Position numbers and translations under genes: made by a program
Notes under the pieces: generated by a model
Databases searched by the model: none
Told to the model about the DNA's origin: nothing
What the model saw: the letters and a program-made list of their open reading frames with translations, nothing else
Shown: positions 1 to 43,801 of the stretch, piece after piece
Position numbering within the stretch: the first letter of the stretch is position 1
Layout of the letters: each line of letters starts with the position of its first letter
Origin: Bacteroidaceae bacterium
Lineage (GTDB): Bacteria; Bacteroidota; Bacteroidia; Bacteroidales; Bacteroidaceae
NCBI GenBank assembly: GCA_045640065.1
Contig: JAZUEH010000119.1
Coordinates: forward strand, 19,075-83,074
Length of the DNA stretch: 64,000 nt
Direction of reading: 5' to 3'

Positions 1-1143
1 TGCAACAAGATCAAAGAACTCCCCTTCATAAAGCCAGACACTGGTACTGTCAAGGGAGATGCCACTCACATCATTGTATACCGTCACGTTACAGCTGCTT
101 GTAAAGCCACCGTCTTCAGATACTGCAACAATGCCTGCCTTTCCGGCCGTGAGGGCCTCGACAAGACCTTCGGCATTGACAACGGCAACGCTCTCATCGG
201 TCGAACTCCACTTGAGCGTACGGTTACTTGCATTGGCCGGGTTGAGACTGGCCTTCAACGAATAAGTGTCACCTACATACATTGAAAGGTTGTCATTATC
301 CAACGATATGCCGTTGACCGGACTGATAACGGTCAGGCGACAGGTATCGGAATAATTGCCGTCAGCAGTAATGACAACTATCTCGGCATATCCTGCAGTA
401 AATGCAGAAACCTTTCCGGACTGGTCCACATCAGCCACTTTTGTATCGCTGGAATGCCATATTACACCGGCATCGGTAGCACGTTCAGGATAAACTGAAG
501 CCTTGAGCGTAAATGTCTGACCCTCTTCAATGGTATACTCCGGATAGTTCAGCTTAACACCATCAGTTCTGCAAAGTACGCTAACAGCACACTCTGCATA
601 TATCTTTCCGTCAGCCGATGAGGCTCTGAGAGTAGTCTGTCCGGCCATAAGGGCGGTTACTATTCCACCGTTCACGACTGCAACCGAGTCATTGGAACTG
701 GTCCAGAAAATGTCAGGTTCGGTTGTGTCAACAGGGAATAACGACAGCTTGATGGTATCGGACTCCTTTTCATAAAGGCTTATTTCATTTCTGTCAAGTA
801 CAATGGTTTCCAAAGGTATCACTTCGGGCACGACAGTCACCATACAATGGTCAGAAAGGCCATTGTCATCGGCCTTGACGGTAATTTCAGCAACACCCAG
901 ACCGTTTGCCGAAACAAGTCCTCCACTTACGCTGGCGATTCCGGCATCGGTACTCATCCATACGACCGCATTATTGGTAGCATTGTTCGGCGACACTGTA
1001 GCGGAAAGCTGATAAAAGTCGCCCAACTTGACCGTTATCTTTGATGTGTCAAGAGTAACGCTTGATACGGGAACAGACTCATCTTTCTGGCATGAGCAAA
1101 ACAGAGCAATCAGACACGACAGTATATATATTGATTTCTTCAT
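1..1143 (-). CDS. Lipoprotein with tandem bacterial Ig-like (Big_2-type) repeats; 3' end lies outside the window
   Basis: Reverse-strand ATG at 1143, 5 nt after the stop of the upstream gene, gives MKKSIYILSCLIALFCSCQKDE (signal peptide plus lipobox Cys). Hand translation continues VTLDTSKITVKLGDFYQLSATVSPNNATNNAVVWMSTDAGIASVSGGLVSANG, a classic Big_2 repeat signature. The frame is not closed before position 1, so it is missing from the ORF track. I translated only the first ~80 codons rigorously. Confidence 0.72.
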   Translation of the reverse strand, partial: MKKSIYILSCLIALFCSCQKDESVPVSSVTLDTSKITVKLGDFYQLSATVSPNNATNNAVVWMSTDAGIASVSGGLVSANGLGVAEITVKADDNGLSDHCMVTVVPEVIPLETIVLDRNEISLYEKESDTIKLSLFPVDTTEPDIFWTSSNDSVAVVNGGIVTALMAGQTTLRASSADGKIYAECAVSVLCRTDGVKLNYPEYTIEEGQTFTLKASVYPERATDAGVIWHSSDTKVADVDQSGKVSAFTAGYAEIVVITADGNYSDTCRLTVISPVNGISLDNDNLSMYVGDTYSLKASLNPANASNRTLKWSSTDESVAVVNAEGLVEALTAGKAGIVAVSEDGGFTSSCNVTVYNDVSGISLDSTSVWLYEGEFFDLVA

Positions 1144-1148
1144 AATGC

Positions 1149-3005: not shown

Positions 3006-3021
3006 AAGTACATTTTATGTT

Positions 3022-3060
3022 AAAAAAAGGAGAGAGATAGAGACTATCTCTCTCCTTTTT
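3022..3060 (-). terminator. Rho-independent terminator after the collagen-like gene (symmetric, could act in both directions)
   Basis: Perfect 12-bp stem GGAGAGAGATAG (3029-3040) / CTATCTCTCTCC (3044-3055) with a 3-nt loop. It is flanked by A7 (3022-3028, a U-tract on the minus transcript) and T5 (3056-3060). It lies 24 nt after the stop at 3084. Confidence 0.8.
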
Positions 3061-3083
3061 CAAGATTGATAATTGATATTCAA

Positions 3084-6000
3084 TTATTTGTATGAGTTCT
3101 CAGTGCTAAGAACAGTGATCTTTGCATCAACATCCTGCTTGAATGCATCAGTGTCGATTGCTACAGAAATCTTGGCAGTAGCGAACTTATTATTCTGCAG
3201 ATCAGTACCCTTGTTGTCCCAAGTGATCTTCTGGCCATCATTGAACAGGTTACCGCCAAATGAAGCCTTGGTATCAGCATTGTAAACAAACTCCTTGAAG
3301 GTTACATCAATGGTTTCTGAACCTGTAAGACCGTAAGTTGAGATAGCATACGGAGTTGCAGCCCATGCACCACCAGTGTAGGTGAAGAGTTCCTTACCTG
3401 CGTTATCCTTGATCTTGACGAGTTCGTCAATAACCTTAGAATCAGCAGTACCTGTAGCACTTGGCTTCAGAGTCTTGAGAACGATATCAGAAATTGTAAT
3501 GTTAACAAGAACTGAGTTGAACTCAACATAGTAATAACCGCTCTTAGCCTTCGGAGCATCAACGATTACACCAGCCTCTGAGAAGGTGCAGGTTTCAGTT
3601 ACCTCTACAAGAACATCAGCAGAAGCGCCGAACAAGTTGGTACCCTCATACTTGATTACAGGTGAAGCAGCTGTGAGACCAGTGATAGCGTCAAGCTGAG
3701 CCTTTGTCAGAGTGATGGTCGAGTAACCGTCAGCAGTTGTAGTGATGTCATAACCAACAGAAGTAAGATCAACAAAGTCAAATTCTGTAGCCTTGTAGTT
3801 CTTGATAGTGAATGTCAGAGTAGCCTTCTCATCAGTGAGCTTCAGGTTGTACTCCTTGAAGTGTTCAATCAGAGCTGAAATGTTGGAATCAGTACCCATA
3901 CCCTTGACGCGTACACCACCGTAAACATCGAATGGATCAGGATCCAGAGTCAGAGCAGGCTTGGTGAAGTTGAGAACGTCCTTAGTACCAAGGATATAGT
4001 CAGGATTCAGCTTGAAGTTGTCAATTGAGAATACATGCTTGTGATGGATTTCAACTGGCTTGCTTACTGAATATACGAAGTTGATGGCAACATACGGATA
4101 GTTGTAGTTGTCAACATCGGCCTTAGTCTTGTAAACGAGAACTACAGAGTCCTTGACAGGAGCTGCAATGTTGCGATCAACAAGCAGGCTAATGATGTTG
4201 GTAGAAGTAGCCCAGTCAGTAGGACTTTCCATCTTGTAGCTGATACCTGCAGGAACAGCTGCACCTTCGAACTTGTCATACTCGAACTTAGGATCGGTTG
4301 ACTTAGCCTTGAGATCCTTTGGTCTGTAGATATTGTCAAGATCGTAAATCTTCTGGAAGTCTTCGAATGACATGCCGAGAGCCTCATTCAGGACCTTGGT
4401 GTTAACCTCGTTCCAGGTAACGACGAGCTTGTCAGCTGTGTAATTCTTATCTTCTGAAGTACCGGCTGGCAGAGCAGGCAGGTTCTCATAAGTGAACTCA
4501 ACCTCATGACGAAGCATGAATTCATGATACAGAGGTGATACTGCAGGAGGAACAATCTTCTCAGCGGTAATGACAACCTTAATGTAAGCAGTAGTAATTA
4601 CATCATTGCCATACTTGGCTGTAACCTTTACAAGAGGAGTACGGTTAACGGCTGAAATGCCATATTCAGGCTTAACAGTCATGACACCCTTTGCGTCAAT
4701 TGTAACGAAGTCGTTCTGATCAGTGTAACCGTCAATACCGAAATAAGGCTTTCCAGCAACACCAGCTTCGTTAACGAGAACGAACTGATAGGTAACATCA
4801 CCCAGACCAAGTTCGCCGAAACGCTTGGCAATGCTATCAGCATACAGATCAACTACTGTATTCAGATCAAGGGACTCATCATACTTGAGGCATGGTTCCT
4901 TAAGAGGAGCAATGTCAAAGTCATTGTCTTCTGTAATGGCTACAGGAGCTGTACGATATTTCAGTACTGGGTTCTTCTTATGAATGATTGAATAGCTGTC
5001 GTTGACATTCTTTGTGGTAACGTATGCATAATCAGAAGCAATCTTCTCACCTTCCATAGTAGCCTGCAGAGCGAAGATGACATTCTGCTTGCCATGAGCC
5101 GGCTCTGAAATCTGACCGTCAGCAGTTACGGTAACTGCCAGAACACCATTGTTGACCTTTGCGCTCTTGAAAACGACCTTACCCTCAGCAGCAGCCTTGG
5201 TGAGAACGCTACGGTTAAGCATCTCGAACTTGGCAGCATCAATGTTGACCTGCTCAGGATTCATGCGATAGTTGACAACGATAGGATCTGAACCGATAAC
5301 CTTTGTACCGATTGCATAAACCCAAGGAATTTCGTAGTAGCCGAGGCCGTCGAAGATTACATCGGGAAGATTTGCAAGACTCTTCAGCTTGTTTGAAATG
5401 GTAGACATTGTAACAAAACCGCCTTCAGCACCATCAACATTTGCGAAAGTGATTTCGTTCTTGTTGCTGTTGTAGATAGCTGTTACAGTGTTGCTGGGGA
5501 GCAGAGGTTCAATGGTCTTGCCTGTAGCTGCACCTGCTGAGGTGTACTCAACCCAAGCGTTCTTGGCAACTTCCGGCTTCCAATAGTTACCGTCCTTGCC
5601 ATCCTTACCATCCTTGCCGTCAACGCCGTTCTTGCCATCAACGCCATTCTTGCCGTCCTTGCCGTCAACGCCGTCCTTGCCGTCCTTGCCAGGAGCACCG
5701 TCCTTGCCGTTAACGCCGTCCTTGCCGTCCTTACCGTCAACTCCGTTGATTCCGTCCTTGCCGGGAGCACCGTCCTTGCCGTCAACGCCGTCCTTGCCAG
5801 GAGCACCGTCCTTACCGTCAATTCCGTCCTTGCCGTCCTTGCCGTCAACGCCGTTGATTCCGTCCTTGCCGTCCTTGCCGTCAATTCCGTCCTTACCTTC
5901 AGCCTGCAAACCGGTTGAAACGCCGTCAATGCACCAGCAACCGTCTGCGCCAATTGTGATTACAGAACCAGCCTCGCCATTCTTACCATCCTTACCGTTG

Positions 6001-6239
6001 GTAATCTCGTAAGACTGGCCATTGGAAAGAGAAACACTAACACCGTTTGCGGTTGGATTCACAGCGGTGATCACACTACCTGCAGCAATCTGAGCCTTCA
6101 GGTCACCTACTGTCTTTTCCAGAGCAGCAACCCTAGTGTCCAGAGCGGAGATGTCTGAAGAATAATCCTTCGCACATCCTGCAAGCATCAGCATCGCGCC
6201 AAAAGCGCCGACGAATGCCAATTTGATTTTTTTGTTCAT
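3084..6239 (-). CDS. Large surface lipoprotein with N-terminal coiled-coil, collagen-like G-X-Y repeat region and long beta-rich C-terminal part
   Basis: 1051-aa ORF with lipobox LMLAGCAKD. A heptad-like LDTRVAALEKTVGDLKAQI segment follows. Residues ~115-217 are 34 uninterrupted G-X-Y triplets (GKDGIDGKDGKDGINGVDG...). The N-terminal arrangement resembles what I recall as DUF4988 / PL29 N-terminal type (unverified). Confidence 0.8.
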   Translation of the reverse strand: MNKKIKLAFVGAFGAMLMLAGCAKDYSSDISALDTRVAALEKTVGDLKAQIAAGSVITAVNPTANGVSVSLSNGQSYEITNGKDGKNGEAGSVITIGADGCWCIDGVSTGLQAEGKDGIDGKDGKDGINGVDGKDGKDGIDGKDGAPGKDGVDGKDGAPGKDGINGVDGKDGKDGVNGKDGAPGKDGKDGVDGKDGKNGVDGKNGVDGKDGKDGKDGNYWKPEVAKNAWVEYTSAGAATGKTIEPLLPSNTVTAIYNSNKNEITFANVDGAEGGFVTMSTISNKLKSLANLPDVIFDGLGYYEIPWVYAIGTKVIGSDPIVVNYRMNPEQVNIDAAKFEMLNRSVLTKAAAEGKVVFKSAKVNNGVLAVTVTADGQISEPAHGKQNVIFALQATMEGEKIASDYAYVTTKNVNDSYSIIHKKNPVLKYRTAPVAITEDNDFDIAPLKEPCLKYDESLDLNTVVDLYADSIAKRFGELGLGDVTYQFVLVNEAGVAGKPYFGIDGYTDQNDFVTIDAKGVMTVKPEYGISAVNRTPLVKVTAKYGNDVITTAYIKVVITAEKIVPPAVSPLYHEFMLRHEVEFTYENLPALPAGTSEDKNYTADKLVVTWNEVNTKVLNEALGMSFEDFQKIYDLDNIYRPKDLKAKSTDPKFEYDKFEGAAVPAGISYKMESPTDWATSTNIISLLVDRNIAAPVKDSVVLVYKTKADVDNYNYPYVAINFVYSVSKPVEIHHKHVFSIDNFKLNPDYILGTKDVLNFTKPALTLDPDPFDVYGGVRVKGMGTDSNISALIEHFKEYNLKLTDEKATLTFTIKNYKATEFDFVDLTSVGYDITTTADGYSTITLTKAQLDAITGLTAASPVIKYEGTNLFGASADVLVEVTETCTFSEAGVIVDAPKAKSGYYYVEFNSVLVNITISDIVLKTLKPSATGTADSKVIDELVKIKDNAGKELFTYTGGAWAATPYAISTYGLTGSETIDVTFKEFVYNADTKASFGGNLFNDGQKITWDNKGTDLQNNKFATAKISVAIDTDAFKQDVDAKITVLSTENSYK
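5589..5897 (-). repeat. Coding tandem repeat (9/18-nt periodicity) encoding the collagen-like (G-X-Y)34 tract
   Basis: Repeated ccgtccttgcc / ccgtcaacgcc units on the + strand. The same periodicity produces the artefactual repeat ORFs 5483-5953(-) and 5596-6012(+). Confidence 0.9.
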
Positions 6240-6365
6240 AGAGTTAATTAAATGATTGAAGATTAATAATTTAACACAGTTTTTTTCTATTTATTCTTTT
6301 CCTTTTTCTTGACTTTTTTTTGTTTTTAGGATTAAACATAGCATAATAAAGCAATCAATTTGCCA

Positions 6366-6373
6366 CAAAGGTA
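6366..6373 (-). promoter_or_regulatory. Candidate Bacteroidetes -7 promoter box (TAnnTTTG) for the collagen-like gene
   Basis: The + strand reads CAAAGGTA, which is TACCTTTG on the minus strand. It sits ~125 nt upstream of the ATG at 6239, followed by an A-rich leader. No clear -33 TTTG was seen. Confidence 0.35.
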
Positions 6374-6608
6374 AACATAATTTTCTTTCCTACAATGCTA
6401 AAAATGCATTTTTTTCTACTCCAGTGTATGTCAGACGTGATATTTTCCACAATTGACAGCACCGGTCAGATGCTTGCCATCCAATGGAACAGATGCAATA
6501 AAAACTATATGAACAATTGTTAATTCTTGCAAAATAAGCTTCGTTTGGGATCAAACCAACAAATATGGAGCCCGAAATTCGCAACAAAGACCAACATATG
6601 TATGAAGC

Positions 6609-6635
6609 AAAAAGGCCGGTCACGAATGACCGGCC
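6609..6635 (-). terminator. Rho-independent terminator of the OmpA-family gene
   Basis: Perfect 9-bp stem GGCCGGTCA (6614-6622) / TGACCGGCC (6627-6635) with loop CGAA. A5 at 6609-6613 gives U5 on the minus transcript. It lies 36 nt after the stop at 6671. Confidence 0.8.
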
Positions 6636-6670
6636 TCCCTTAATCTGATATATATATACCGATTTATATA

Positions 6671-7813
6671 TTACTTGGTGACGATAACAGCCACACGGTT
6701 CAGTTCCGGAGTTTCGAACGGATTCTCTTCACTTCCCTTCCAATCCTTAGTGATACGTGACTCGTCAACACCAGCCTCGATAAGTCTCTTGGCAACAGCG
6801 TTTGCACGCTTTTCTGACAGGGTCATGTTCCACTTCGGAGTACCGGTCCAATGATCGGCATAGCCTGTGATTCCGACTACTGCTTCAGGATACTTGTTAA
6901 GAACCTCAAGAACGTGGTCAATCTTTTCATCTTCAGTCTTGCGGATATTCCAGCGGTCAAGCTTGAAAAGAACGTTTTCGGTGACAGCACGATCCTTAGC
7001 ACGCTGTTCTGCAGCGGCCTTCTCCTGAGCCTCACGAGCTGCCTGAGCTGCGCGTGCAGCCTGCTCACGCTCCTGATCTGCTCTCTGGCGGGCAGCTTCT
7101 TCCTGAGCCTTCTTCTCTGCTTCCAGACGGGCAGCCTCCTTTGCAGCGGCAGCGGCGGCAGCAGCGGCAGCAGCATCGGCAGCAGCCTGCTTCTTGGCTG
7201 AACCGAGAGAGAACTTGACACCGAGAAGTGCATTCCAGTGATTGTCGAGATTATCACCTACCTTTGAATTGAAGTGGTCAGATACCATGTTGTCCAGAAC
7301 CTCAAGACCGATTGTAACATAAGGTGCAACACGGAAATCGATGCCGGCGCCTGCACGGCCTGCAAGGCTGATGGCAGGATCTTCCCAATAATAATTATCT
7401 TCAGGAAGCATGGCAAGTGAAGCACCGTTATTGAAACGGTAGTTACCGCCTATACCTGCAAAGAGATAAGGATTGATGGCACGTGACTTGTAACCTCCGA
7501 TAAGATTGCAAAGGTCAAATGTGGCATCCAGAGCAAGCTGGCCGAAGTTGAACTTGTAGCTTTCGAACTTGAGATTCGAATAACCCATGCCTTCCCAACC
7601 GTTGGCATTGAGGCGAAGACCGAAAGTTGGAGTAGCCTGATAACCCAGCGAAAGGGATGCTGCCGGTGAAATGAGGTTTGTCCATTCTGTTTCACCTACA
7701 GTGTGACCTACGCCACCCTGAAGCTGCATGTACCAGTCAGTGTAGAACTTGTCCTGGGCGAACATGCCTGATGTCATCATAACCAATGACAGAGCTGCAA
7801 AAATCTTTTTCAT
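6671..7813 (-). CDS. OmpA-family outer membrane protein (N-terminal beta-barrel, long Ala/Glu/Gln/Arg-rich helical linker, C-terminal OmpA peptidoglycan-binding domain)
   Basis: 380 aa with signal peptide MKKIFAALSLVMMTSGMFAQ. Beta-strand-like alternating pattern in the first ~200 aa. C-terminal GYADHWTGTPKWNMTLSEKRANAV...NRVAV matches an OmpA_C-like domain. Confidence 0.85.
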   Translation of the reverse strand: MKKIFAALSLVMMTSGMFAQDKFYTDWYMQLQGGVGHTVGETEWTNLISPAASLSLGYQATPTFGLRLNANGWEGMGYSNLKFESYKFNFGQLALDATFDLCNLIGGYKSRAINPYLFAGIGGNYRFNNGASLAMLPEDNYYWEDPAISLAGRAGAGIDFRVAPYVTIGLEVLDNMVSDHFNSKVGDNLDNHWNALLGVKFSLGSAKKQAAADAAAAAAAAAAAKEAARLEAEKKAQEEAARQRADQEREQAARAAQAAREAQEKAAAEQRAKDRAVTENVLFKLDRWNIRKTEDEKIDHVLEVLNKYPEAVVGITGYADHWTGTPKWNMTLSEKRANAVAKRLIEAGVDESRITKDWKGSEENPFETPELNRVAVIVTK

Positions 7814-7904
7814 AATTTGATGTGATTAAAGTATTCCTAACTTATTTGGGTGCAAAAATATGCAATAATTCCGATTATTACAAGCAAAACACCATAATAA
7901 TATA

Positions 7905-8567
7905 TTACCATTCGACTGGCGTCAGACCTTTGGACTGCAACCATTCATTCGCCTTTGAAAAATGACGGTTGCCAAAGAATCCGTTATAAGCCGACAGCGG
8001 TGACGGATGGGCGGATTCAAGTATAAGATGACGGGAAGAATCGATCAGAGGGATTTTCTTTCGGGCATAACCTCCCCATAGGATGAAGACCACATGGTCA
8101 CAGTTCTGACTGACGCATCGGATTACAGCATCGGTAAAGGTTTCCCAGCCTCGGCCCTGATGAGATGCGGCCTGGCCGGCCCTTACGGTAAGTACCGCAT
8201 TAAGCAGCAGGACGCCCTGACTTGCCCAACGGGTCAGATCCCCGCTTTGGGGGCATGGCGTTCCAAGGTCCTGGCTGATCTCCTTGAAAATGTTTCTGAG
8301 TGAAGGCGGGAACGGGACTCCCGGTTGGACTGAAAAGCAAAGGCCATGGGCCTGGCCGGGCTCGTGATATGGATCCTGCCCCAGAATGACCACCTTGACA
8401 CGTTCGAAGGGACACAGGTCAAAGGCATTGAAAATCCTGCCTGCCGGCGGATATATTATCCGGTTTGAATATTCCGAACGCACGAATGCCGCCAGATCTG
8501 AGAAATATGGCTTATCGAATTCGCTCTGCAGCTGTCTTTTCCAACCCGATTCAATCCTGACCTCCAT
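7905..8567 (-). CDS. ung: Uracil-DNA glycosylase
   Basis: 220 aa with family-1 UDG motifs GQDPYH and HPSPLSA. Confidence 0.95.
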   Translation of the reverse strand: MEVRIESGWKRQLQSEFDKPYFSDLAAFVRSEYSNRIIYPPAGRIFNAFDLCPFERVKVVILGQDPYHEPGQAHGLCFSVQPGVPFPPSLRNIFKEISQDLGTPCPQSGDLTRWASQGVLLLNAVLTVRAGQAASHQGRGWETFTDAVIRCVSQNCDHVVFILWGGYARKKIPLIDSSRHLILESAHPSPLSAYNGFFGNRHFSKANEWLQSKGLTPVEW

Positions 8568-8582
8568 ATGCTGTATTCTGAA

Positions 8583-9620
8583 TCAGATGATCTGGATACC
8601 GGCCTCGCTGCATCTTGCACGCTGGTCTTCAGGCCAGATACTGGCCTGGATTTCACCTATATGCGCCTTCTGCAGGAAAAGCATGCAGAGACGTGACTGG
8701 CCTATTCCTCCACCAATTGAAAGAGGCAGTTCTCCTGAAAGGAGTTTCCTGTGGAAATACAGATCCTTACGTTGCAGTTGTCCGCATATCTCCAACTGTC
8801 GCAGCATGGACGCGGCATTGACACGGATACCCATTGACGACAGTTCCATGGAACGGTTGAGAATAGGATTCCAGACAAGAAGATCACCGTTGAGTCCAAT
8901 GAAACCGTCTTCATTCGGTGTGCTCCAGTCATCATAGTCAGGAGCACGCAGATCATGAGGCTGGCCATCGGAAAGCTCCGCCCCTATCCCCATTATGAAA
9001 ACAGCGCCATACTTTCTGGTCACCTCATCTTCACGTTGCTTGGCAGAAAGCCCCGGATATTCACGCAACAGTTCTTCAGAATGGATGAAATGGACTTCGC
9101 GCGCCAGGAACGGCTCAAGTTGCGGATATGTCTCCCATATAAGATATTCGGTCCTGAGCATTGCCGAATATATTTTGCGGACAATACGTTTCAGGAAGCC
9201 CACGTTCCTGTCCTCATCCGTTATGGTACGTTCCCAGTCCCACTGGTCAACATACAGGGAATGCAGATTGCCCAGACTCTCATCGGCCCTTATGGCATTC
9301 ATGTCGGTATAGATTCCATAGCCGGCAGGAATCTCATATTCAGAAAGAGTCAGACGTTTCCACTTGGCCAGCGAATGGACCACTTCGGCCTTTGCATCAC
9401 CGAGGTCCTTGATCGGGAAAGTGACTGCACGTTCGACACCGCTCAGATCATCATTGATTCCCATTCCCTGAAGTACGAACAGAGGTGCCGTGACACGGCG
9501 GAGTTGCAGTCCGGTCGACAGGTTCTGCTGGAAAAAATCCTTGATCAGCTTGATTCCCTGTTCGGTCTGTCTCATTGACAGCTTCGGGCTGTAGTGTTCA
9601 GGAATAATAAGATAGCTCAT
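8583..9620 (-). CDS. asnA: Aspartate--ammonia ligase (asparagine synthetase A)
   Basis: 345 aa. Blocks match E. coli AsnA closely: VVHSLAKWKR, YVDQWDWER, DLRAPDYDDWSTP, LNGDLLVWNP, ELSSMGIRV, GGGIGQSRL. Confidence 0.95.
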   Translation of the reverse strand: MSYLIIPEHYSPKLSMRQTEQGIKLIKDFFQQNLSTGLQLRRVTAPLFVLQGMGINDDLSGVERAVTFPIKDLGDAKAEVVHSLAKWKRLTLSEYEIPAGYGIYTDMNAIRADESLGNLHSLYVDQWDWERTITDEDRNVGFLKRIVRKIYSAMLRTEYLIWETYPQLEPFLAREVHFIHSEELLREYPGLSAKQREDEVTRKYGAVFIMGIGAELSDGQPHDLRAPDYDDWSTPNEDGFIGLNGDLLVWNPILNRSMELSSMGIRVNAASMLRQLEICGQLQRKDLYFHRKLLSGELPLSIGGGIGQSRLCMLFLQKAHIGEIQASIWPEDQRARCSEAGIQII

Positions 9621-9643
9621 AGTATTGTGGCATTAATCACCGG

Positions 9644-12600
9644 TCAGTCGTCATACCAGTTCACATAACTGTTCTGGCTGCTGCGTTTCTTGACCTTGAG
9701 AAGGTCAGAAAGCATGCTGGACGTGGCCCGGACGGTGAAATTATATGAAATATACGGTTTCAGAACCATGCTGCACGACATGTTGAAGCAATGCAGATCA
9801 CGGGAGAAGTTCATCGTTGTCATGGTAAAATCGTGATAGACGAAATCCCATCCGGACGAGAAATTGAAATTCCACTTGTTGGTGAGTTTCAGGTTACCGG
9901 ACATGTTGAGACTATGGGTGAATCCCCAGGGATAACGCATCCGTTCAGGATTGATCTCGGCTTTGGTATCTTCCTTCATGCTGATGCCGTATGAAAGTGA
10001 CAACGACCATGGAAGAGAATACTCCACGTATCCGTCATCATCGGTTTTCGCCTGAGCACTGCCTGACGAAGAACCAGCTGATCGCGACCTGGAAGAGGCG
10101 GCCGGACGACGATCCTGGCTATCGGTCAATTCGGAATCCCCATCCGATTCATCATCATCGGACTCCGTACCGGAGAACATGGATGTCAGCTTGTGCCATC
10201 TCTCACTCAGATCGTTGAGAGTATTGTTGTTGAATGTATAGGAGAAATTCTGGCTCATGCCCTGGAAACGGCCGAACCTTCCGTATGACCATTCGGTACG
10301 GTCACCGACCACGACTTTCCCCTGATCATTGAACTCATAGGCGTATGTGGCAAAGACAGCGTTCAGATTAAACGTGTAGCTCTTGCCGAACTTGAGACGT
10401 ATTCTGGTGCTGAGGTTACTCCAAGGCTTCGTTTTCGCCGCCATATTATACGATATTGAAGCACCCAGCTGGTCAATCAGCGAAACGACCTTAGTCTGTA
10501 CGGAATCGCCCGATGGATGTAGCTTCATCTCAAGATTATTGTCCACACTGAGTGAAACGCTTCCCGACTTGCCCTTTCCGGGGACGCCATACATTCCGCT
10601 CTGGTAGGGCGAATATTCCACAGTACGGACTTCACCGTTCCTGTCGGTATAGACGTATGTGTCATAGTATCCGAAACGGGCTGCTCCGAAATCGGGCGTC
10701 ATGCTGTAGCTGAGGGTCGGGGTAAGTACATGCCTGACAGCCACAAGACGATCCGAGAACAGTTTTCTCCAAAGGTCCGTAGGCTGATACATTCCATACA
10801 GCTTCGTATTGGCACTGACGCTCATGTTGTAGTCATATACACGGTTGAAGCCATAGACCGTATCACGCACCGCCATACCTAGCATATCATCCCAATGCTG
10901 GTTTACCTTATACGAATACCACCGTGACGAATAGTTGAATGAAGGAGTCACGTTGATGTTGTTCAGTATCTGGAATGTCGCACTGACAGGAATGGAGTGC
11001 TTCATGCCGTTTTTCCAATCCGTAAGAAGATTCTTATGCATGAGCTCGTCCTCCTTGCAGGTAATGCTGTTGGAAAGGGAACCCGAATATGTGAACGATA
11101 TCTTCTCGTACCACTTTTCCGAACCGGCAGCTTTTTTTTTCTTGAAAGGATATATGCGTTGTAATGATAGGTTCAACGAAGGAAGCGACACCGACAAAGT
11201 GGAATCACGCATATTCTGCGAGAGGTTCATGGATGACGAGAGCGAAAGGCCGATGTCCGGGAAACTGCGAGAATAGCTGACGCTTGAAGTCCTGGTGCTC
11301 TGAGACCTGAGTGACGGGTTGTACAGACTTGTCAGATTTGACGTTTCATAACTCTGGGTTGCATAGTTGACGCTGGCAGAGAAGTTCTGCAAAGGATTGG
11401 CCTTTGAATCCTGGCTGTGTGTCCAACGGACTTTGAAGTCTTTGGATACGGAAAAGTCCGGAAGTCCCTTATCGCCCAGTTTTGTTGTAAGCGAACTCAC
11501 ATAGACATTGCCCGTAAACTTGTACCGTTTCTTGTAGCGCGTCTCGGCAGATACGCCCCACGAACCTTTCGTGAAGACTTCACCAAGAACCTTAAGATCG
11601 AAAAAATCCGAGAGAGCGAAATAATAGCCGCCATCCTTGAGATAGAAGCCGCGTTCCATTTCATCGCCGTAGCTAGGTACGATGATACCCGATGCGTAAT
11701 CGCTTTCCGTGAAGGGGAAGAATCCGAAAGGCAGGAACAGAGGAAGCGGAACGCCCATGACCTCAAGATATGCAGGACCGAACACGACGTCACGTCCCGG
11801 CCTGACCTTGGCACGTGTAATGCGGATGTTGAAATGCGGATCATCCTGATTGTCACAGGTAGTGTATATGCCGTCCTCTATGAAATATTCGCCATCCGGG
11901 CCTTTCTTTGCCTGACTGCTGGTCATGTATCCTTCACCCTGTTGGGTAATGATTTCATTGATGTACCCCTTTTCTGACTTGAAATTGTAGCTAAGATGGT
12001 TGGAATTGTATGGAGTATTCCCGTCATTGAAAACCGGTGCTCCAATCCACTCCCCTGTGCTGTCCTGTACTCCATCCGCATAGACCAGACTACTGTCGAT
12101 CTGCATTTTGATGACCGCAGCTGTCAGTTCTATATTCTGATAATTGACTTTACCTTCTCCGAAAAGCGATGCATATCCTCCTCTTATCCAGGTCATGGAA
12201 TCCTTGGACTCGTAGATCACAGGGGCATCAAGAGCATCCTTCACACGGATACTGTCCAGAACCAGACTGTCAGAAACAATGCTGTCAAAAGCCAGACTGT
12301 CCAACGCCAGGCTGTCCAACGCCAGGCTGTCATATTCCAGACTGTCAAGTGCCAGACTGTCAAGTGCCAGACTGTCAAATGTCAGGCTATCGGAAGTTGG
12401 CAATTCAAGCAGTGTACTGTCCTTAGACAACGATGCGGTACTGTCCGGAAGGGCATGAACTTCAGGCTGGACAGGCTGTGCTACACCCGATACCGCAGAA
12501 TCGGCCATTTCCGGCTCCAGAGGAATGATATCGGATTGCATGACACTGTCTGAAGGCAAACCGGCAGTATCACTGCCCTCAACCCTTCTTCCGACAGAAC

Positions 12601-12685
12601 AGTCTGTGAGAAGGAGAGCCAAAGCCAGCAGGACAGGAATATCGATTGCCGGCTGAATCCTTTTGAGCCAATTTGCCAATTTCAT
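9644..12685 (-). CDS. LptD/OstA-like outer-membrane LPS-assembly protein homologue with N-terminal pentapeptide-repeat region
   Basis: 1013 aa. Size and layout (signal/lipobox-like LLTDCS, OstA-like region VIYESKDSMTW...VNYQNIELTAAVIKM, long beta-rich C-terminus ending in an aromatic residue) fit the Bacteroidales putative LptD family. Assignment is from memory of the family, not a search. Confidence 0.6.
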   Translation of the reverse strand: MKLANWLKRIQPAIDIPVLLALALLLTDCSVGRRVEGSDTAGLPSDSVMQSDIIPLEPEMADSAVSGVAQPVQPEVHALPDSTASLSKDSTLLELPTSDSLTFDSLALDSLALDSLEYDSLALDSLALDSLAFDSIVSDSLVLDSIRVKDALDAPVIYESKDSMTWIRGGYASLFGEGKVNYQNIELTAAVIKMQIDSSLVYADGVQDSTGEWIGAPVFNDGNTPYNSNHLSYNFKSEKGYINEIITQQGEGYMTSSQAKKGPDGEYFIEDGIYTTCDNQDDPHFNIRITRAKVRPGRDVVFGPAYLEVMGVPLPLFLPFGFFPFTESDYASGIIVPSYGDEMERGFYLKDGGYYFALSDFFDLKVLGEVFTKGSWGVSAETRYKKRYKFTGNVYVSSLTTKLGDKGLPDFSVSKDFKVRWTHSQDSKANPLQNFSASVNYATQSYETSNLTSLYNPSLRSQSTRTSSVSYSRSFPDIGLSLSSSMNLSQNMRDSTLSVSLPSLNLSLQRIYPFKKKKAAGSEKWYEKISFTYSGSLSNSITCKEDELMHKNLLTDWKNGMKHSIPVSATFQILNNINVTPSFNYSSRWYSYKVNQHWDDMLGMAVRDTVYGFNRVYDYNMSVSANTKLYGMYQPTDLWRKLFSDRLVAVRHVLTPTLSYSMTPDFGAARFGYYDTYVYTDRNGEVRTVEYSPYQSGMYGVPGKGKSGSVSLSVDNNLEMKLHPSGDSVQTKVVSLIDQLGASISYNMAAKTKPWSNLSTRIRLKFGKSYTFNLNAVFATYAYEFNDQGKVVVGDRTEWSYGRFGRFQGMSQNFSYTFNNNTLNDLSERWHKLTSMFSGTESDDDESDGDSELTDSQDRRPAASSRSRSAGSSSGSAQAKTDDDGYVEYSLPWSLSLSYGISMKEDTKAEINPERMRYPWGFTHSLNMSGNLKLTNKWNFNFSSGWDFVYHDFTMTTMNFSRDLHCFNMSCSMVLKPYISYNFTVRATSSMLSDLLKVKKRSSQNSYVNWYDD
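12250..12395 (-). repeat. In-frame 15-nt tandem repeat (~10 units) encoding (D-S-L/I-x-x)n
   Basis: + strand units ccagactgtcaagtg / ccaggctgtccaacg and similar. They translate to DSLTFDSLALDSLALDSLEYDSLALDSLALDSLAFDSIVSDSLVLDS. Confidence 0.9.
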
Positions 12686-12750
12686 AATCCGCGCGCAAAA
12701 TTATACAATAAATGGCAAAACACCTCCATGAGCATAGTGAAAATGCCCAA

Positions 12751-13320
12751 TTAAAGGAAACGGTCACACCAGACACGGAACTTCGCAACGCCTTCCGGTC
12801 CAAACTTCTCAAGGCTTGCAATTGCCTGCTCCACCGTCTTCTCCTGTGTGGGACGAGTCTTGGAGAAGAACTTGTCGGCAAAGCACACCAACTGTTCCTC
12901 TATGCTGACAGGAATCATTTCCCTGTGCGGGATTGGCATGCTTCTGTCGATTATCTGTTCCAAAGTGAGTCCGGTTCCAGTGTGACGTTCGGCAACAAGA
13001 GCATGCCTTGGAAGTCCCTCATTTCTGAGAATGTCAGCTCCAAGATAACCGTGACATATATAAGGATGCGTACCGAAACAGTGTATCGGAGCAGCATCAG
13101 TCAGGAATATCCCTATGTCATGGAGCATGGCCGCCTGGTATGTGAAAACGGTATCGGCCTCCAGTTCCGGATGTATAAGGGCAATGGCAACCGCCTTGCG
13201 GGCCACGAGCGTGCCGTGAGTGATGAGAAGTTCCATCAAGGGGCGGTTGTCACTGTAATACCGCCCGATGATGGGTTCCCATATGTTTCCGGTTTGTGCC
13301 GGACCGGTCATTTCAGACAT
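12751..13320 (-). CDS. HD/HDIG-domain metal-dependent phosphohydrolase
   Basis: MLHDIGI (HD motif) and ERHTGTGL blocks. The track ORF starts at 13413 inside the upstream gene. The ATG at 13320 (MSEMTG...) lies 5 nt after the beta-galactosidase stop and is the likelier start. Confidence 0.75.
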   Translation of the reverse strand: MSEMTGPAQTGNIWEPIIGRYYSDNRPLMELLITHGTLVARKAVAIALIHPELEADTVFTYQAAMLHDIGIFLTDAAPIHCFGTHPYICHGYLGADILRNEGLPRHALVAERHTGTGLTLEQIIDRSMPIPHREMIPVSIEEQLVCFADKFFSKTRPTQEKTVEQAIASLEKFGPEGVAKFRVWCDRFL

Positions 13321-13325
13321 TCCGG

Positions 13326-16300
13326 TCACTTTGCACGTACAGGACTGATAACGAACGAATAGCTGCGGTCGCCGTAATGCAGTTTGTACGGTTCCAGAGG
13401 TGTTGCGCCCCAACTGTTCACGCAGGCAAGACCGTACTGGGCCTGATCGATGTGTACTACAGCAATATTGCGCGGCTTCAGATCACCGGCATGAAGATTG
13501 CGCTTGGCCGGAGTCTCATCCAGATCGGAAGTCAGATAGTCAAGTGTGGACATACTAAGAGGTATGTCACTGTAGAACTCCAGTCCACAGCCATTATTGT
13601 CAAGAACTTTCCAATAACGGACATCGGTCTTGTTGCCGGTTTCCTGAGGCCTGATATACGGGAAATACTGGTCGCTGACATTTTCCCTGAACAGTCCCAG
13701 AGACTGAGAGCTGTTTCGGTCGCTGTAGTTTTCAACAGGTCCACGGGCATAGTATTCAAGCTTTTCGAAATTACGGTTCATGACCATAGTCATGCCGAAG
13801 CGAAGCATATCCGGCATACGGCGATTGTCCTGAGTGGCATGAGTCAGAAGTGACTGGGTTACCTTCATCTTGCCGTCAGAGGTCAGGACGTATGTCATTT
13901 CCAGATTGCATTCCAGAGCAGCAATTTCATATTTCACGAACACCATAGCGGCTCCATCCTGAAGTCCGCATTCGAACGAAGTCCTGCGCATGTCCGGATT
14001 CTTCCAAGCTGCGAGATTACGCTGCAGACTTGCTCCGAAGTCATTGTCGGTAGCGGCACGCCAGAAGTCGCTCTTGAGCTGGAAACCGTTCTCACTTATC
14101 TGGCGTCCGTCCATGTCAATATAGTCTATCCATCCGCTGTTCTTGTTGAAGGTGTATTTCATTCCGGCAGCCTCAAGGGTAACGTATGCGACAGCTTCGT
14201 CAATCTTAACCGGTTCCATACCATCCAGTCCTGTTCCGAAATCCTTCATGTCGAAGAACTTGTAGTCCCTGTACGCCAGTTGACGATAAGCCACCACATG
14301 ACCGGCCTTGAGCAGAGCTGTCGGCTGGATCAGGCATATCTCGAAATTGACCAGTATCTCCTTATCCTTCGGAGCCCTTTTCAGTGCCTTGGCCAGCTTG
14401 GGGTATACCACATTCTTGCGTTCCTGAGGACCGACGTAAGGAAGTTTCTCTCTTTGGACTCCCTGTGACACACCGTCATACAGGACACTCCAGCGCAATT
14501 CATAATCGGAAAGGTCAACAAAGAAGTTCTCATTGTATATTTCAACCTCTCCCTTTGCCAGAGCCACGGGTTCAATCCATACGTTCTGGTACTGGTAGGC
14601 AACTTCGTATGCATGCGGATTCCAGCGGCGGTCGGGGGCTATCAGTCCGTTGCAGTTGAAATTCTGGTCCGATGTCGGGTATCGGCCATCGTCACCGCCA
14701 TACTGGAATATGAGATCACCATCGGCATTCTCGCCATAGACGGCCTGATCGACAAAATCCCAAATGAAACCGCCCTGAACACTGCGGTTTGCACGTATGA
14801 CATCCCAATATTCCTTGAATCCGCCCTCGGAATTACCCATTGCATGAGCGTATTCACACTCAATGAAAGGACGCGGGTCATTGCCGCGCTCATGACGTTC
14901 CATTGCACCATAGTCAGCATACATGGGACATGCTATGTCACAGTGATCAGGAGAATTGGTGGCTCCCTCATACTGCACCGGACGTGTCTTGTCATAATCC
15001 TTGATCCATTTGTAACAATCTATGAAATTCTGTCCGTCTCCGGTTTCATTACCCATGGACCATACGATAATTGAAGGATGGTTACGGTAAGTTATCACAT
15101 TTGACTGATTGCGCTCCATATGAGTCAACGCGTAATCCGGATTCTTAGCCAGCTGACTGCGTCCATACATCATTCCGTGTCCCTCGACATTGGCCTCGGC
15201 AACCAGATAAATGCCGTATTCATCGCATAAATCGTACCAGCGCGGATCATCGGGATAATGGCTTGTGCGAACAGCATTGATGTTCATTTCCTTCATTATT
15301 CTGATGTCCTCAATCATACGGCTCACAGGCACCACATATCCTCCGGCAGGATCCATTTCATGACGGTCAGCACCCTTGATGAGGACCGGCTGTCCGTTCA
15401 CCAACAGCTGGCGGTTCCTGATTTCCACACTTCTGAAACCGACTTTCTGATCTATGCACTCTATGGTCTTTCCACTGTTGTCAATGAGATTCATCTCAAG
15501 GGTATAGAGGTATGGAGTCTCGGCAGTCCACTTCTTCGGATTGGAAATGTCGAATGACAGTCTCATTGTGGTTCCTCCCTCGCGGAAAATGTTCTGAGAC
15601 CTGAATACCTGATGCCCATCAGCATCAAGCAGACGCAGTTCAAGTCCGCCAGGCTGCTGGCCCTCAAGGCGCAGATTCAGTTCAAGTTTGGCATCACGAT
15701 ACTTGTCATCAAGCTTAGTAATGATACCATAGTCCTGGATATGACGCTCCGGACGACTGTACAGATAGACCTCACGGGCTATGCCTGTGAAGCGCCAGAA
15801 GTCCTGATCTTCCAGATAGCTGCCATCGCACCAGCGCATGACCTGCATGGCTATCAGGTTGTCTTGTCCGAATTCAACGAAATCGGTTATGTCGAATTCA
15901 GCCTCCATCTTGCTGTCCTCGCTGTAACCTACATACTGGCCGTTCACCCACAGGCGCAGATTGGATGTGGCCGAACCGACATGCATTATGACACTCTGCC
16001 CCTCCCAGTCAGCCGGGATTTTGAAAGAACGGCGGTATGAACCGACATAATTTTCACGTTCACCGATATATGGAGGATCAACCCTGTGCTCGTTGTTCCA
16101 CGGATAAGTCACGTTTGTGTATATTCTGTCACCGTATCCGTTCAGTTCAAAAAGACCAGGCACCGGGAAATCCACCCACTGACTGTCATCGAACTCCTTT
16201 TCATGGAAGCCCAGAGGACGGTCATAATAGTTCCTTACAAAATTGAAACGCCACTGGCCCTCAAGTGACATATAGCGGTCCGATGCCGTCTTGTCCCCAC

Positions 16301-40516: not shown

Positions 40517-41976
40517 TACACCCGAAGATCATAAGCCGCATAATTGGAGTTCTTCTTCTGATTGAAGCAGGACTGATGCTTCTATGCGGTCTTATGCCCT
40601 TATTTATGCGCGAAGACGACCTTTTCGCGTTCATAGCCTCAGCTCTCATTGCAGGAGTGGCAGGCATGAGCATGCTGCTTTTCGGAAAGAAGGCACGGCA
40701 TGAGGAAAACATCATGACACGAAGGGACGGCTATATCGTGGTTGCCATCACCTGGGTGGTCTTTTCTGTATTCGGTTGCATGCCGTACTTTCTATCCAGA
40801 TACATACCGTCCTTTACCGACGCCTATTTCGAGACCATGTCCGGCTTTTCCACAACCGGTTCGACCATAATCCCCGATGTTGAAATCATTCCTCACGGAC
40901 TACTGTTCTGGCGCAGTCTGACCCAATGGATAGGCGGTCTGGGTATCGTGTTCTTTACAGTAGCAGTGTTACCTATCTTCGGCGTTGGCGAAGTCCAGCT
41001 GTTCGCTGCCGAAGCAACCGGACCGGCAAGAAACAAACTCCACCCCAGAATCAGCGTCAGCGGCCGCTGGATTCTCACAGTCTACCTGCTAATTACCGCC
41101 AGTTGCGCAGCTTGTCTGAAACTATGTGGAATGGGACTGTTCGACAGCGTAAATCACGCCCTTTGCACCGCAGCAACAGGAGGATTCTCAACTAGAAACG
41201 CCAGCATAGCATACTACGCTTCGCCCACCATAGAATATGTAATCACACTGTTCATGTTCCTGTCAGGAATAAACTACGGCCTCATTTTTTTCGTAGCATT
41301 CAAGGGACGAGTTTCGAAAATCTTCACAGACACTGAATTCCAATGGTATCTGTCAATAATCCTGATCTTTTCTCTTATTGTCGGAGCAGGACTGTTTTTA
41401 GGAACACCTAATAATGTCGGTGATTCCATACGAAATGCTGTTTTCCATGTGGTATCAATCATCACGACGACCGGATTCACCATAACGGACTATACCACAT
41501 GGCCTCCATTCATCTGGATGATTCTAGGTCTATGCATGTATGCTGGCGGTTGTGGCGGATCAACATCGGGAGGTATCAAGTCCATCAGAATTGCCATTCT
41601 GGCCAAATCAATGAGAAATGAAGTAAATCGCATACTGCATCCCAATGCCGTATTGCCTGTCCGCATAAACGGCAAAGTCATTTCCCCACAGGCACGTCAG
41701 AGCGTACTCACGTTCTTCATCTTCTTCCTGGCATTGGTCTTCTTCGGATGGTTCTTCTACATTGCCATCGGACTTGACATTACTGACGCATACGGAACGT
41801 CCATCTCATGTCTGAGCAACGTAGGACTGACAATAGGATATCACGGATGCAACATTCCGTGGGACAATATGCCGGCCATTGGAAAATGGTTCTCAACCCT
41901 GCTCATGCTGGTCGGCCGACTTGAGGTCTTTGCCGTTCTGCTTCTGTTCTCCCCCTCGTTCTGGAAACGATACTAA
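40513..41976 (+). CDS. trkH: Trk-type potassium transporter membrane subunit TrkH
   Basis: 487 aa polytopic protein with GFSTTG / TGGFST selectivity-filter-like motifs. The TTG start overlaps the trkA TGA (TTGA). The conserved N-terminus IISRIIGVLLLIEAG supports the non-ATG start. Confidence 0.9.
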   Translation: MIHPKIISRIIGVLLLIEAGLMLLCGLMPLFMREDDLFAFIASALIAGVAGMSMLLFGKKARHEENIMTRRDGYIVVAITWVVFSVFGCMPYFLSRYIPSFTDAYFETMSGFSTTGSTIIPDVEIIPHGLLFWRSLTQWIGGLGIVFFTVAVLPIFGVGEVQLFAAEATGPARNKLHPRISVSGRWILTVYLLITASCAACLKLCGMGLFDSVNHALCTAATGGFSTRNASIAYYASPTIEYVITLFMFLSGINYGLIFFVAFKGRVSKIFTDTEFQWYLSIILIFSLIVGAGLFLGTPNNVGDSIRNAVFHVVSIITTTGFTITDYTTWPPFIWMILGLCMYAGGCGGSTSGGIKSIRIAILAKSMRNEVNRILHPNAVLPVRINGKVISPQARQSVLTFFIFFLALVFFGWFFYIAIGLDITDAYGTSISCLSNVGLTIGYHGCNIPWDNMPAIGKWFSTLLMLVGRLEVFAVLLLFSPSFWKRY

Positions 41977-42957
41977 CAGGTCTCTGAGATCCTTCTGCAT
42001 CATGGCATACATGGGGCAGTCACGGTAATGTGTATTCTTTCTCAAGGCTTCCAGAATATCCATCTGGCTGTGACGATACGCACTCAGCTCGTTCTGGTAC
42101 TGCTGCTCATGGCGGGCCATGTGACGTATGTCATTCTCACGTTCCTGACGAAGACTGGTACAGATGGGATCAAGTACCTTCATTATGACATTCTCGACCA
42201 GGTGATGCCCTTGAATGAACAAATAACAGTTTTGCGGAGTAACCCCCTTGAAGACAAGCTGTTTCATAAGTTCCTCAACCTTTTCAATTGCATCGGGCAT
42301 TTCCTGTTCAAAGTTTTTCACCTTGCGTACACAACGGTCAGCGAGAGACTGCAGAATCTTGACAGGATGCTTAATATCCACTTTTCCAAGACGAATGTCC
42401 ATATTCAGATCCTGCATGCTGTATTCCGAATGGCGACGGCTGCGGTAGAACCACACATTCCAGACAAAGAGCGGCCATACAGCTTTTGAGTACATCTCCA
42501 TAAACGCCTCCATGTCAAGCGGTTCACGGTCATTAAGTGTACACTGCACACAAATCTGATGCAGGCTGCGGGCCCAGCACTGATAATTTTCAATGGCATA
42601 AGTATAGGTCTGGATAACGTATGGATTATTGTTGACCTGACGTGAAGTTTCGGTTATGTCATCCAGAAGCCAGTCATAGTCGCTGTCCACGCATGCAATC
42701 ATGTGAGTTCCAAGACTGTTCTGTCCCAGACAGGAACTCAATGCAGGTTTCTTGCCTTTAGTCAGTCCACTCTTGGTTGGAAGCAATATCTGAAAATAAT
42801 GTTCTGGGGTCTCAAACTCATCAAGCAGCACACGCCAGAAGGACACATCGTCATAACTCTCCACGTAAGCTATGATACGTCCGCGACGACTGCCCGGAAG
42901 CAGACGGTCAGCCGCCTCCAGATACTTGGAATTGACGTTGTCCAGCAGTTTGTTCAT
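41893..42957 (-). CDS. DUF4435 / OLD-type Toprim-domain protein (AriB-like candidate effector)
   Basis: 354 aa with an acidic Toprim-like YVESYDD near the N-terminus and the DxD motif CVDSDYD. The start overlaps the stop of the upstream ATPase (ATGA). The last 28 codons overlap the trkH 3' end on the opposite strand. Confidence 0.7.
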   Translation of the reverse strand: MNKLLDNVNSKYLEAADRLLPGSRRGRIIAYVESYDDVSFWRVLLDEFETPEHYFQILLPTKSGLTKGKKPALSSCLGQNSLGTHMIACVDSDYDWLLDDITETSRQVNNNPYVIQTYTYAIENYQCWARSLHQICVQCTLNDREPLDMEAFMEMYSKAVWPLFVWNVWFYRSRRHSEYSMQDLNMDIRLGKVDIKHPVKILQSLADRCVRKVKNFEQEMPDAIEKVEELMKQLVFKGVTPQNCYLFIQGHHLVENVIMKVLDPICTSLRQERENDIRHMARHEQQYQNELSAYRHSQMDILEALRKNTHYRDCPMYAMMQKDLRDLLVSFPERGGEQKQNGKDLKSADQHEQG

Positions 42958-43775
42958 CGGACTGTTATTTCATCGACATCACATACGCAATCCATCCAGC
43001 CGTCCATGATGAGCGCCGGAGAATGTGTTGTCATGATTATCTGGGCATTGGGATTCAACTGACGCACACGGTTCAACAGTTGCTGCTGCCATTCAATGTG
43101 CAATGATATCTCAGGTTCATCCATGAGCAGGATACACGGTTTCATGTCCTGGACAAGCATTGTCAGCATAATGACCAACAGCTGCTTTTCGCCCGATGAC
43201 AGGCTGTATGGAAGCAGAGTCATCCCAAACTGGTCGAAACATATCTCGTTGCTGGTGCGGACAATCTTCTTGCCGGTATCCTGGAACAGTTCATCCATAC
43301 AGTCCATGAACTGGACCCTTGGCATGGAAACATGCTGTGCCTCGGCCATGCTCTCGGGAGTACCCTGTGTAAGCAGCTGTATTGTACGGTTTCCTATATT
43401 GACCTGATAGTCAAGATAACGGCGCTGCAGTTTGTACAGCTGCCAGTCAAGTTCCGACACGACATTGCTGTCAGACATCTTTTCAAGCAATGTGGAATGC
43501 ATCATAGGACGGTCAATACTGCGGATCACATCATAGCTGAATGCGTTTGCCCCAGCCGGTTCAAATTCTATAGTGACTTCAGGAACCGGTTCATCGGACT
43601 CTCCTGAAATAAAGTCCAAGGCAGCGACGGTTCTGTTCAGAATAGTACTCTTGCCTGTACCATTCACACCGCTCAGAATATTGACATCGGGACGCAGATT
43701 CCAGAGAATGTGTTTGCGACCCCAAAGCGATTTGATTTCAATGCTTTTGATTCCTGTTGCTGTAATGTTGTCCAT
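42954..43775 (-). CDS. Compact ABC-type (AAA_21-like) ATPase (AriA-like candidate sensor)
   Basis: 273 aa with Walker A GVNGTGKST, ABC signature LSSGEKQLL, Walker B ILLMDEPEISLH and H-loop TTHSP. Confidence 0.75.
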   Translation of the reverse strand: MDNITATGIKSIEIKSLWGRKHILWNLRPDVNILSGVNGTGKSTILNRTVAALDFISGESDEPVPEVTIEFEPAGANAFSYDVIRSIDRPMMHSTLLEKMSDSNVVSELDWQLYKLQRRYLDYQVNIGNRTIQLLTQGTPESMAEAQHVSMPRVQFMDCMDELFQDTGKKIVRTSNEICFDQFGMTLLPYSLSSGEKQLLVIMLTMLVQDMKPCILLMDEPEISLHIEWQQQLLNRVRQLNPNAQIIMTTHSPALIMDGWMDCVCDVDEITVR

Positions 43776-43801
43776 ATCGAAAAATTGATGCTTCAGTCCA
43801 A

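Follow-up and report, generated by a model that had tools for sequence, protein, structure and literature searches.

The window analysed here, a stretch of 64,000 nucleotides from a Bacteroidaceae bacterium (assembly GCA_045640065.1, contig JAZUEH010000119.1, positions 19,075 to 83,074 of the forward strand), harbors a pair of minus-strand genes that encode a compact ABC-type ATPase and a DUF4435/Toprim protein. We assign the two products to AriA and AriB of the PARIS system. The assignment holds but brings nothing new: standard pipelines already report such pairs. The main new result is the distribution and evolutionary mode of the pair, which in Bacteroidaceae shows fixed synteny, co-divergence with its housekeeping neighbors and constraint at a housekeeping level. 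The genes and their junction are the following (aa, amino acids):

42954..43775, minus strand: compact AriA-type ABC ATPase, 273 aa (profiles, structure search)
41893..42957, minus strand: AriB-type DUF4435/Toprim protein, 354 aa (Pfam, PADLOC, hhalign)
42954..42957, minus strand: ATGA, 4-bp overlap of the AriA stop and AriB start (window sequence)

Both open reading frames, their overlap and every motif listed in an earlier note on this DNA were found in the sequence. The ATGA junction suggests that the two genes may be translationally coupled.

The earlier note had proposed that an ABC ATPase next to a DUF4435/Toprim gene is the AriA/AriB architecture of PARIS, and profile searches bear this out with matches far beyond chance for both proteins. 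Among defence families, the best profiles of the pair are those of AriA and AriB. The ATPase matches the PADLOC AriA model PDLC04164 at 6.3e-57 over profile positions 4-251 of 253, and in Pfam it reaches 74.2 bits with AAA_21 and 59.3 bits with AAA_15. The second protein covers positions 2-236 of the 238 in Pfam DUF4435 (2.6e-49, 168.5 bits), so the profile check that the earlier note had proposed for it upholds its DUF4435/Toprim placement. In PADLOC it is matched by AriB models only (PDLC02983 at 4.9e-61 and PDLC04165 at 4.7e-33). The published detection rule for PARIS asks for AAA_15 of at least 32 bits or AAA_21 of at least 27 bits with an adjoining DUF4435 of at least 27 bits (Rousset 2022); here both genes lie above these bit thresholds and overlap by 4 bp.

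In classification, the pair does not differ from PARIS_II of DefenseFinder or from PDLC04164 plus PDLC04165, and these two PADLOC profiles (AriA with 253 positions, and AriB) already cover the compact type. In Bacteroides thetaiotaomicron jmh43, DefenseFinder gives the label PARIS_II to a 333-aa DUF4435 gene beside a 291-aa AAA gene, both of which are transcribed. The sizes of this pair are near those of the B. finegoldii orthologues (333 and 282 aa), and judged by gene size it is apparently orthologous. B. fragilis NCTC 9343 has also been reported to carry PARIS.

Some homologues bear misleading automatic names. ATPases are called "ABC-type Mn2+/Zn2+ transport" or "cobalamin/Fe3+-siderophore transport ATPase", and DUF4435 proteins "ElaB/YqjD/DUF883 ribosome-binding protein" or "prefoldin subunit 5" (P0129, P0225, P0236, P0504 and P0436).

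Distribution and evolutionary mode

A breadth scan with one genome per species placed relatives of the pair in the genomes of at least 585 species, including cultured Bacteroides, Phocaeicola and Paraprevotella. ATPase and nuclease stay together in 79 of the 80 best loci, and the lone exception lies on a truncated contig. Gene order is constant inside each lineage. In one lineage it runs M20 peptidase, pair, trkH, trkA, dxs. In Bacteroides, alpha-2-macroglobulin, DUF1573, MeaB and DMT genes precede the pair, and MscS and then AraC or TonB follow it; a helicase gene and a DMT gene stand ahead of it in Phocaeicola and Paraprevotella. Across these lineage-specific contexts, no integrase or defence gene recurs around the pair. 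The window itself has a counterpart of 98-100% identity in a Bacteroidaceae metagenome-assembled genome from horse faeces (JAKSIU010000004.1).

A search anchored on trkH returned 21 metagenome loci with trkH identities of 68-75%, and the pair lies directly downstream in 21 of 21. The earlier note had named universal conservation at this site, as a core housekeeping operon, among the findings that would refute its candidate anti-phage module; the presence/absence check largely goes that way, and conservation of the locus is core-like. The pair thus departs from the usual accessory or mobile defence module, and a defence role is still compatible with conservation of this kind. One identical ATPase was indexed in 182 blocks; 24 contigs carrying it come from four near-identical places that share their context.

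No counterpart was found among 50,697 phage records. Two matches in Bacteroidaceae are labelled as plasmids, B. finegoldii NZ_OY725943.1 and Phocaeicola massiliensis OY726067.1. The former ("plasmid 41") has a gene order identical to that of the complete chromosome (alpha-2-macroglobulin, DUF1573, MeaB, DMT, pair, MscS, TonB); because of this chromosomal order we reject it as a true plasmid, and it is probably a mislabelled fragment of the chromosome.

Rates of change agree with this picture of a resident locus. Pairwise divergence of the two proteins follows that of trkA and dxs with slopes of 1.00 for AriA and 1.22 for AriB and Pearson r of 0.92-0.94, the comparison value for trkA against dxs being 0.95. 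Ratios of nonsynonymous to synonymous divergence (dN/dS, omega) are 0.055 for AriA and 0.079 for AriB, next to 0.047 for trkA and 0.097 for trkH; since synonymous sites are near saturation (proportion of synonymous differences, pS, about 0.7), these values are rough. A sliding-window analysis of dN/dS gave no sign of an arms race, with no 15-codon segment above an omega of about 0.3 and none near neutrality. In canonical AriA, the trigger-binding pores are poorly conserved.

Compact pairs also occur elsewhere. A Klebsiella ColE1-type plasmid of 4.4 kb encodes a 325-aa ATPase and a 325-aa DUF4435 protein matching the same PADLOC models, and a Sphingobacterium pair (325 and 337 aa), which likewise matches these models or the Pfam domains, lies inside a defence island. 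The Rikenellaceae pair measures 285 and 329 aa, and homologue names point to Gallionella and Methylococcaceae. Typical PARIS is scattered patchily over satellites, prophages and defence islands. The distant compact relatives share this feature, being mobile or island-borne, whereas the Bacteroidaceae clade does not and is fixed among housekeeping genes. In a rough neighbour-joining tree Bacteroidaceae form one clade, sister to Rikenellaceae, with the island and plasmid members basal; inside Bacteroidales the tree agrees with taxonomy. Our claim of breadth concerns Bacteroidaceae, and Rikenellaceae are mentioned as a pointer only. Most likely, a compact PARIS-II that was once mobile became fixed in the chromosome of a Bacteroidales ancestor, and its descent has been vertical from then on.

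The island of Sphingobacterium athyrii (QCXX01000002.1; positions 1116-13611 of our extracted locus) further contains SRA-HNH, NUDIX, HIT and Metallophos genes, several unannotated small open reading frames, a 1196-aa NACHT/nSTAND3 NTPase and a phage-like DUF5131/GP88 gene.

In Candidatus Bacteroides intestinavium, an insertion of 1.8 kb (positions 4140-5980 of locus L075) parts AriA from AriB, and a similar gap is present in a second locus (L062). The L075 insertion encodes a 380-aa putative lipoprotein and a Cys-rich peptide of 97 aa with an "ANIEALA" motif, which we take to resemble the NVEALA peptide family of Bacteroidota. Because both genes stay intact despite the gap, tight translational coupling appears dispensable in this lineage.

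Catalytic motifs and compact architecture

The catalytic motifs of both proteins are intact. In AriB, the Toprim signatures are three:

42847..42867, minus strand: Toprim motif 1, YVESYDD, residues 31-37 (E33, D37), invariant across three AriB types
42673..42693, minus strand: Toprim DxD motif, CVDSDYD, residues 89-95 (D91, D93), invariant across three AriB types
42583..42597, minus strand: third acidic motif, AIENY (E123), invariant across three AriB types

The types compared are those of Bacteroidaceae, of the Klebsiella plasmid and of P2-like phage PARIS, the latter two standing in for the AriB of Escherichia coli B185, and all of them have E33, D37, D91, D93 and E123 in common. The catalytic acidic set of E. 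coli AriB is E26, D30, D88, E90 and E122. The window protein mirrors this set by motif and by spacing, and not through a direct alignment to the solved protein. With hhalign, it aligns to the AriB of the P2 hotspot at an E-value of 3e-5 over the Toprim core, where the three motifs line up. Neither sequence profiles nor the structure search program Foldseek link it to E. coli AriB. Among PDB sequences, the solved E. coli AriB was not reached by phmmer or by two profile searches; this miss is uninformative, because a genuine P2-hotspot AriB fails likewise.

Some AriB homologues are longer by about 75-100 aa, such as P0084 (423 aa) and P0244 (429 aa, in a cluster of 1391 members). P0084 has an internal duplication at about residues 140-210 of the alignment, which may stem from misassembly or reflect a genuine helical-domain duplication.

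The features of the ATPase are listed in the order of its residues (AF2, AlphaFold2 model):

43644..43670, minus strand: Walker A, GVNGTGKST, residues 36-44 (window sequence)
43287..43454, minus strand: two-helix hairpin, residues 108-163 (AF2 helices 108-137 and 140-163)
43176..43202, minus strand: ABC signature, LSSGEKQLL, residues 192-200, aligning with LSSGERQLL of E. coli AriA
43098..43133, minus strand: Walker B and D-loop, ILLMDEPEISLH, residues 215-226, aligning with VLIDEPEISLH of E. coli AriA
43017..43031, minus strand: H-loop, TTHSP, residues 249-253 (window sequence and conservation in 26 homologues)

Among 26 homologues, Walker A residues G36, N38, G39, G41, K42, S43 and T44 are invariant, as are D219/E220, LSSGEKQ and H251; K42 and the latter motifs align to those of E. 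coli AriA, in which K39 and E393 are required. The cassette of E. coli B185, found in the P4-satellite hotspot and solved as 8ux9 and 8v45-8v49, thus shares with the window an AAA_15/AAA_21 ATPase beside a DUF4435 Toprim protein, conserved ATPase motifs, and five Toprim acidic residues at equal spacing. The two differ in location, the E. coli system being carried by a satellite or phage whereas the window pair has a syntenic place in the chromosome and is passed on vertically, and they differ in the size of the ATPase.

The earlier note had remarked that the ATPase is far smaller than usual for AriA and might represent a distinct compact subtype without most of the insertion region. Both points hold. 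The closest solved sequence is the 464-aa E. coli AriA (8v45, 8ux9; E-value 1.5e-15), and the alignment to it is limited to residues 9-48 and 192-267 of the 273-aa window protein, that is, to the N- and C-terminal parts. Against the 419-aa AriA of the P2-like phage hotspot, a profile alignment covers the C-terminal 99 residues only, at 44% identity and 99.8% probability. The distance from Walker A to the signature is about 147 residues, compared with about 320 for the E. coli protein. The AF2 model, with a mean predicted local distance difference test (pLDDT) of 85.7 and a predicted template-modelling score (pTM) of 0.84, consists of the ABC core and one two-helix hairpin, which is all that is inserted on the stretch from Walker A to the signature. 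The first helix of the hairpin is near-invariant and the second variable (dN 0.02-0.04 vs 0.17-0.22). Best matches of the model in Foldseek are AriA and PtuA, with E-values of about 1e-11 to 1e-10 and template-modelling (TM) scores of 0.5-0.6.

E. coli AriA contains two insertions, IS1 (residues 122-180, three helices), with a predicted role in recognizing the trigger, and IS2 (residues 242-289, two helices), which enables the hexamer. The window ATPase has no insertions of the size of either, only its hairpin. There is no room in it for IS1 or IS2. The protein would probably act as a dimer of the Rad50 kind, with a short coiled coil and no propeller hexamer, and would sense its cue via a surface other than the pores of E. 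coli AriA.

Flanking genes and overlap with trkH

As the earlier note had stated, the surroundings are of housekeeping type. By Pfam, the M20-peptidase side of the pair comprises the directly flanking M20 peptidase gene, queA, a weak PRTase (ComF-like) match, recX and prmC, and the other side trkH, also directly flanking, followed by trkA and dxs. That no defence genes flank the pair was likewise confirmed, as none of the 10 neighbouring proteins matches a PADLOC defence model at 1e-10. Neither tRNA genes nor Rfam families were found in the window. The comparison of local GC content proposed in the earlier note does not set the pair apart: it has a GC fraction of 0.478 against 0.482 for the window, with no shift in composition.

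On the trkH side, the pair ends in one further feature:

41893..41976, unstranded: 84-bp convergent overlap of the 3´ ends of AriB (disordered tail) and trkH (open reading frame coordinates)

The overlap is also kept in related loci. Over the last ~25 codons of AriB, synonymous divergence falls to a pS of 0.20, as against about 0.7 in the remainder of the gene, and the corresponding C-terminal tail is predicted to be disordered (pLDDT <50 in AF2). It looks as if trkH imposes a dual-coding constraint on the 3´ end of AriB. An antisense overlap of the AriB and trkH transcripts is also possible.

At the other end, 26 nt (43776-43801) separate the stop codon of the M20 peptidase gene from the start of AriA, and a transcript shared with the M20-queA-recX-prmC string is possible in this genome. 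A scan for promoters and terminators gave matches no commoner than in shuffled sequences, with a sigma-70 consensus that is unsuited to Bacteroidota. In Bacteroides the pair comes after a divergent DMT gene, and for this reason it needs a promoter of its own there.

Proposed action and competing explanations

Our proposed reading of the pair, to which we give a probability of roughly 0.6, is a compact PARIS of type II. In this model, AriA, as a minimal Rad50/OLD-like ABC ATPase, would bind AriB and keep the nuclease inactive in an ATP-dependent complex. Binding or hydrolysis of ATP would then link the sensing of a cue to the release of AriB. The free Toprim nuclease would cut RNA, probably tRNA, and this cleavage would stop translation and growth. 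In Bacteroidaceae, the module would act as a lineage-wide standing system under strong purifying selection. We infer the complex, the sequestration and release, the RNA target and the anti-phage role by analogy with E. coli PARIS.

Several observations weigh against this proposal. Firstly, family-wide vertical inheritance, constraint at a housekeeping level and the lack of any fast-evolving segment are atypical for a phage sensor. Secondly, the AriB model (pLDDT 79.5, 50-86 in the Toprim part) has no match at E <= 0.001 in Foldseek searches of PDB and BFVD. Thirdly, the bridging residues R28 and R31 of E. coli AriB are without counterpart in the window protein, which has Y35 and V38 at the equivalent spacing. 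Finally, the literature consulted here gives no experimental test of a compact PARIS, the tested systems being those of E. coli B185 and O42 only.

Of the competing explanations, the strongest holds that the pair descends from PARIS and was exapted as a housekeeping module with a cellular role, for example in cleaving tRNA or rRNA in response to stress or for quality control, and takes no part in phage defence. We regard this as rather unlikely, even though much of what has been described above would suit it: fixed synteny, divergence in step with trkA and dxs, dN/dS of 0.06-0.08 with no fast-evolving surface, no phage copies and no true plasmid copies found of the Bacteroidaceae clade (one of the two records labelled as plasmids was examined and has chromosomal order), and an ATPase without the trigger-recognition insertion IS1. 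The size-matched pair of B. thetaiotaomicron is constitutively transcribed, and in published trees RNase M5, a Toprim enzyme of rRNA maturation, is the outgroup for DUF4435. However, no direct sign of a housekeeping role was seen, and no conserved functional partner gene recurs over the three genomic contexts. There are close homologues in the Sphingobacterium defence island and on the Klebsiella plasmid, and all ABC-ATPase plus Toprim pairs of this class that have been characterised serve in defence.

Far less probable is a selfish addiction module of toxin-antitoxin type, kept since loss of the ATPase would free a toxic nuclease. The overlap of the two genes would fit such a module, AriA is termed an "antitoxin" by the depositors of its PDB structures, and a paper on B. 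fragilis places PARIS among toxin-antitoxin systems. But deletion of either gene of E. coli PARIS is non-toxic, which excluded a toxin-antitoxin mechanism there; addiction also fails to explain the strong purifying selection on catalytic residues of the nuclease throughout the family, and in L075 both genes are intact at a distance of 1.8 kb.

It is slightly less probable still that the pair belongs to another OLD-like ATPase-nuclease defence family, such as Septu (PtuAB), AbiL, MADS3-4 or Gabija. PARIS itself is placed among OLD-like systems in the published classification, and the next-best PADLOC families of the ATPase are PtuA (1.3e-24), mad3 (1.1e-17) and AbiLi (1.5e-14). The AriA model is ahead of any of them by more than 30 orders of magnitude, and the partner matches AriB/DUF4435 only, with no HNH, RloB or DUF4276. 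PtuA of Septu and retrons (9n69, 8eea) shares with the window ATPase an ABC fold with a coiled-coil insertion, and its structures are level with AriA in Foldseek E-values; its profiles are nevertheless far weaker than those of AriA, and its partner PtuB is an HNH nuclease, whereas that of the window is a Toprim/DUF4435 protein without an HNH match. OLD nucleases (P2 Old, and GajA of Gabija) likewise combine an ABC ATPase with a Toprim nuclease. In these the two are fused, whereas the window has separate, overlapping genes and a Toprim inside a DUF4435 domain.

An ordinary ABC-transporter ATPase beside an unrelated gene, as the names given by JGI to some homologues (Mn/Zn, cobalamin or siderophore transport ATPase) and a weak ABC_tran match of 29 bits might suggest, is effectively refuted: NCBIfam transporter models stay far under their cut-offs (best 38 bits vs 255), no permease or binding-protein gene adjoins the ATPase gene, whose neighbours are the M20 peptidase and DUF4435 genes, top Foldseek matches are all defence ATPases, and the DUF4435 partner is constant across loci.

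Taken together, the compact PARIS reading leaves the basic classification unchanged and already routine; the interest lies in the evolutionary mode and the minimal architecture. A natural minimal PARIS, with 273 residues in its ATPase and neither IS1 nor IS2, is useful for asking what sensing and sequestration really need. Defence systems are usually patchy, mobile and fast-evolving, yet this pair, labelled PARIS by every standard tool, is core-like throughout a bacterial family that is dominant in the gut. For Bacteroides, Phocaeicola and Prevotella, the number of defence systems counted per genome therefore probably includes a locus that does not vary. The pair is also a candidate for an abortive-infection nuclease that was fixed over the long term or exapted. 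We entertain, as a tentative and not very likely idea, that it has been domesticated, either into a standing core innate-immunity module that the whole family has kept from its common ancestor onwards or, as a former defence nuclease, for use in the cell, for example to cut tRNA or rRNA in response to stress; its cue would then be conserved and not fast-evolving. If this were true, it would hold for Bacteroidaceae and possibly for Bacteroidales as a whole, with a minimal ATPase that lacks the insertions for trigger binding and hexamer formation as the sensor.

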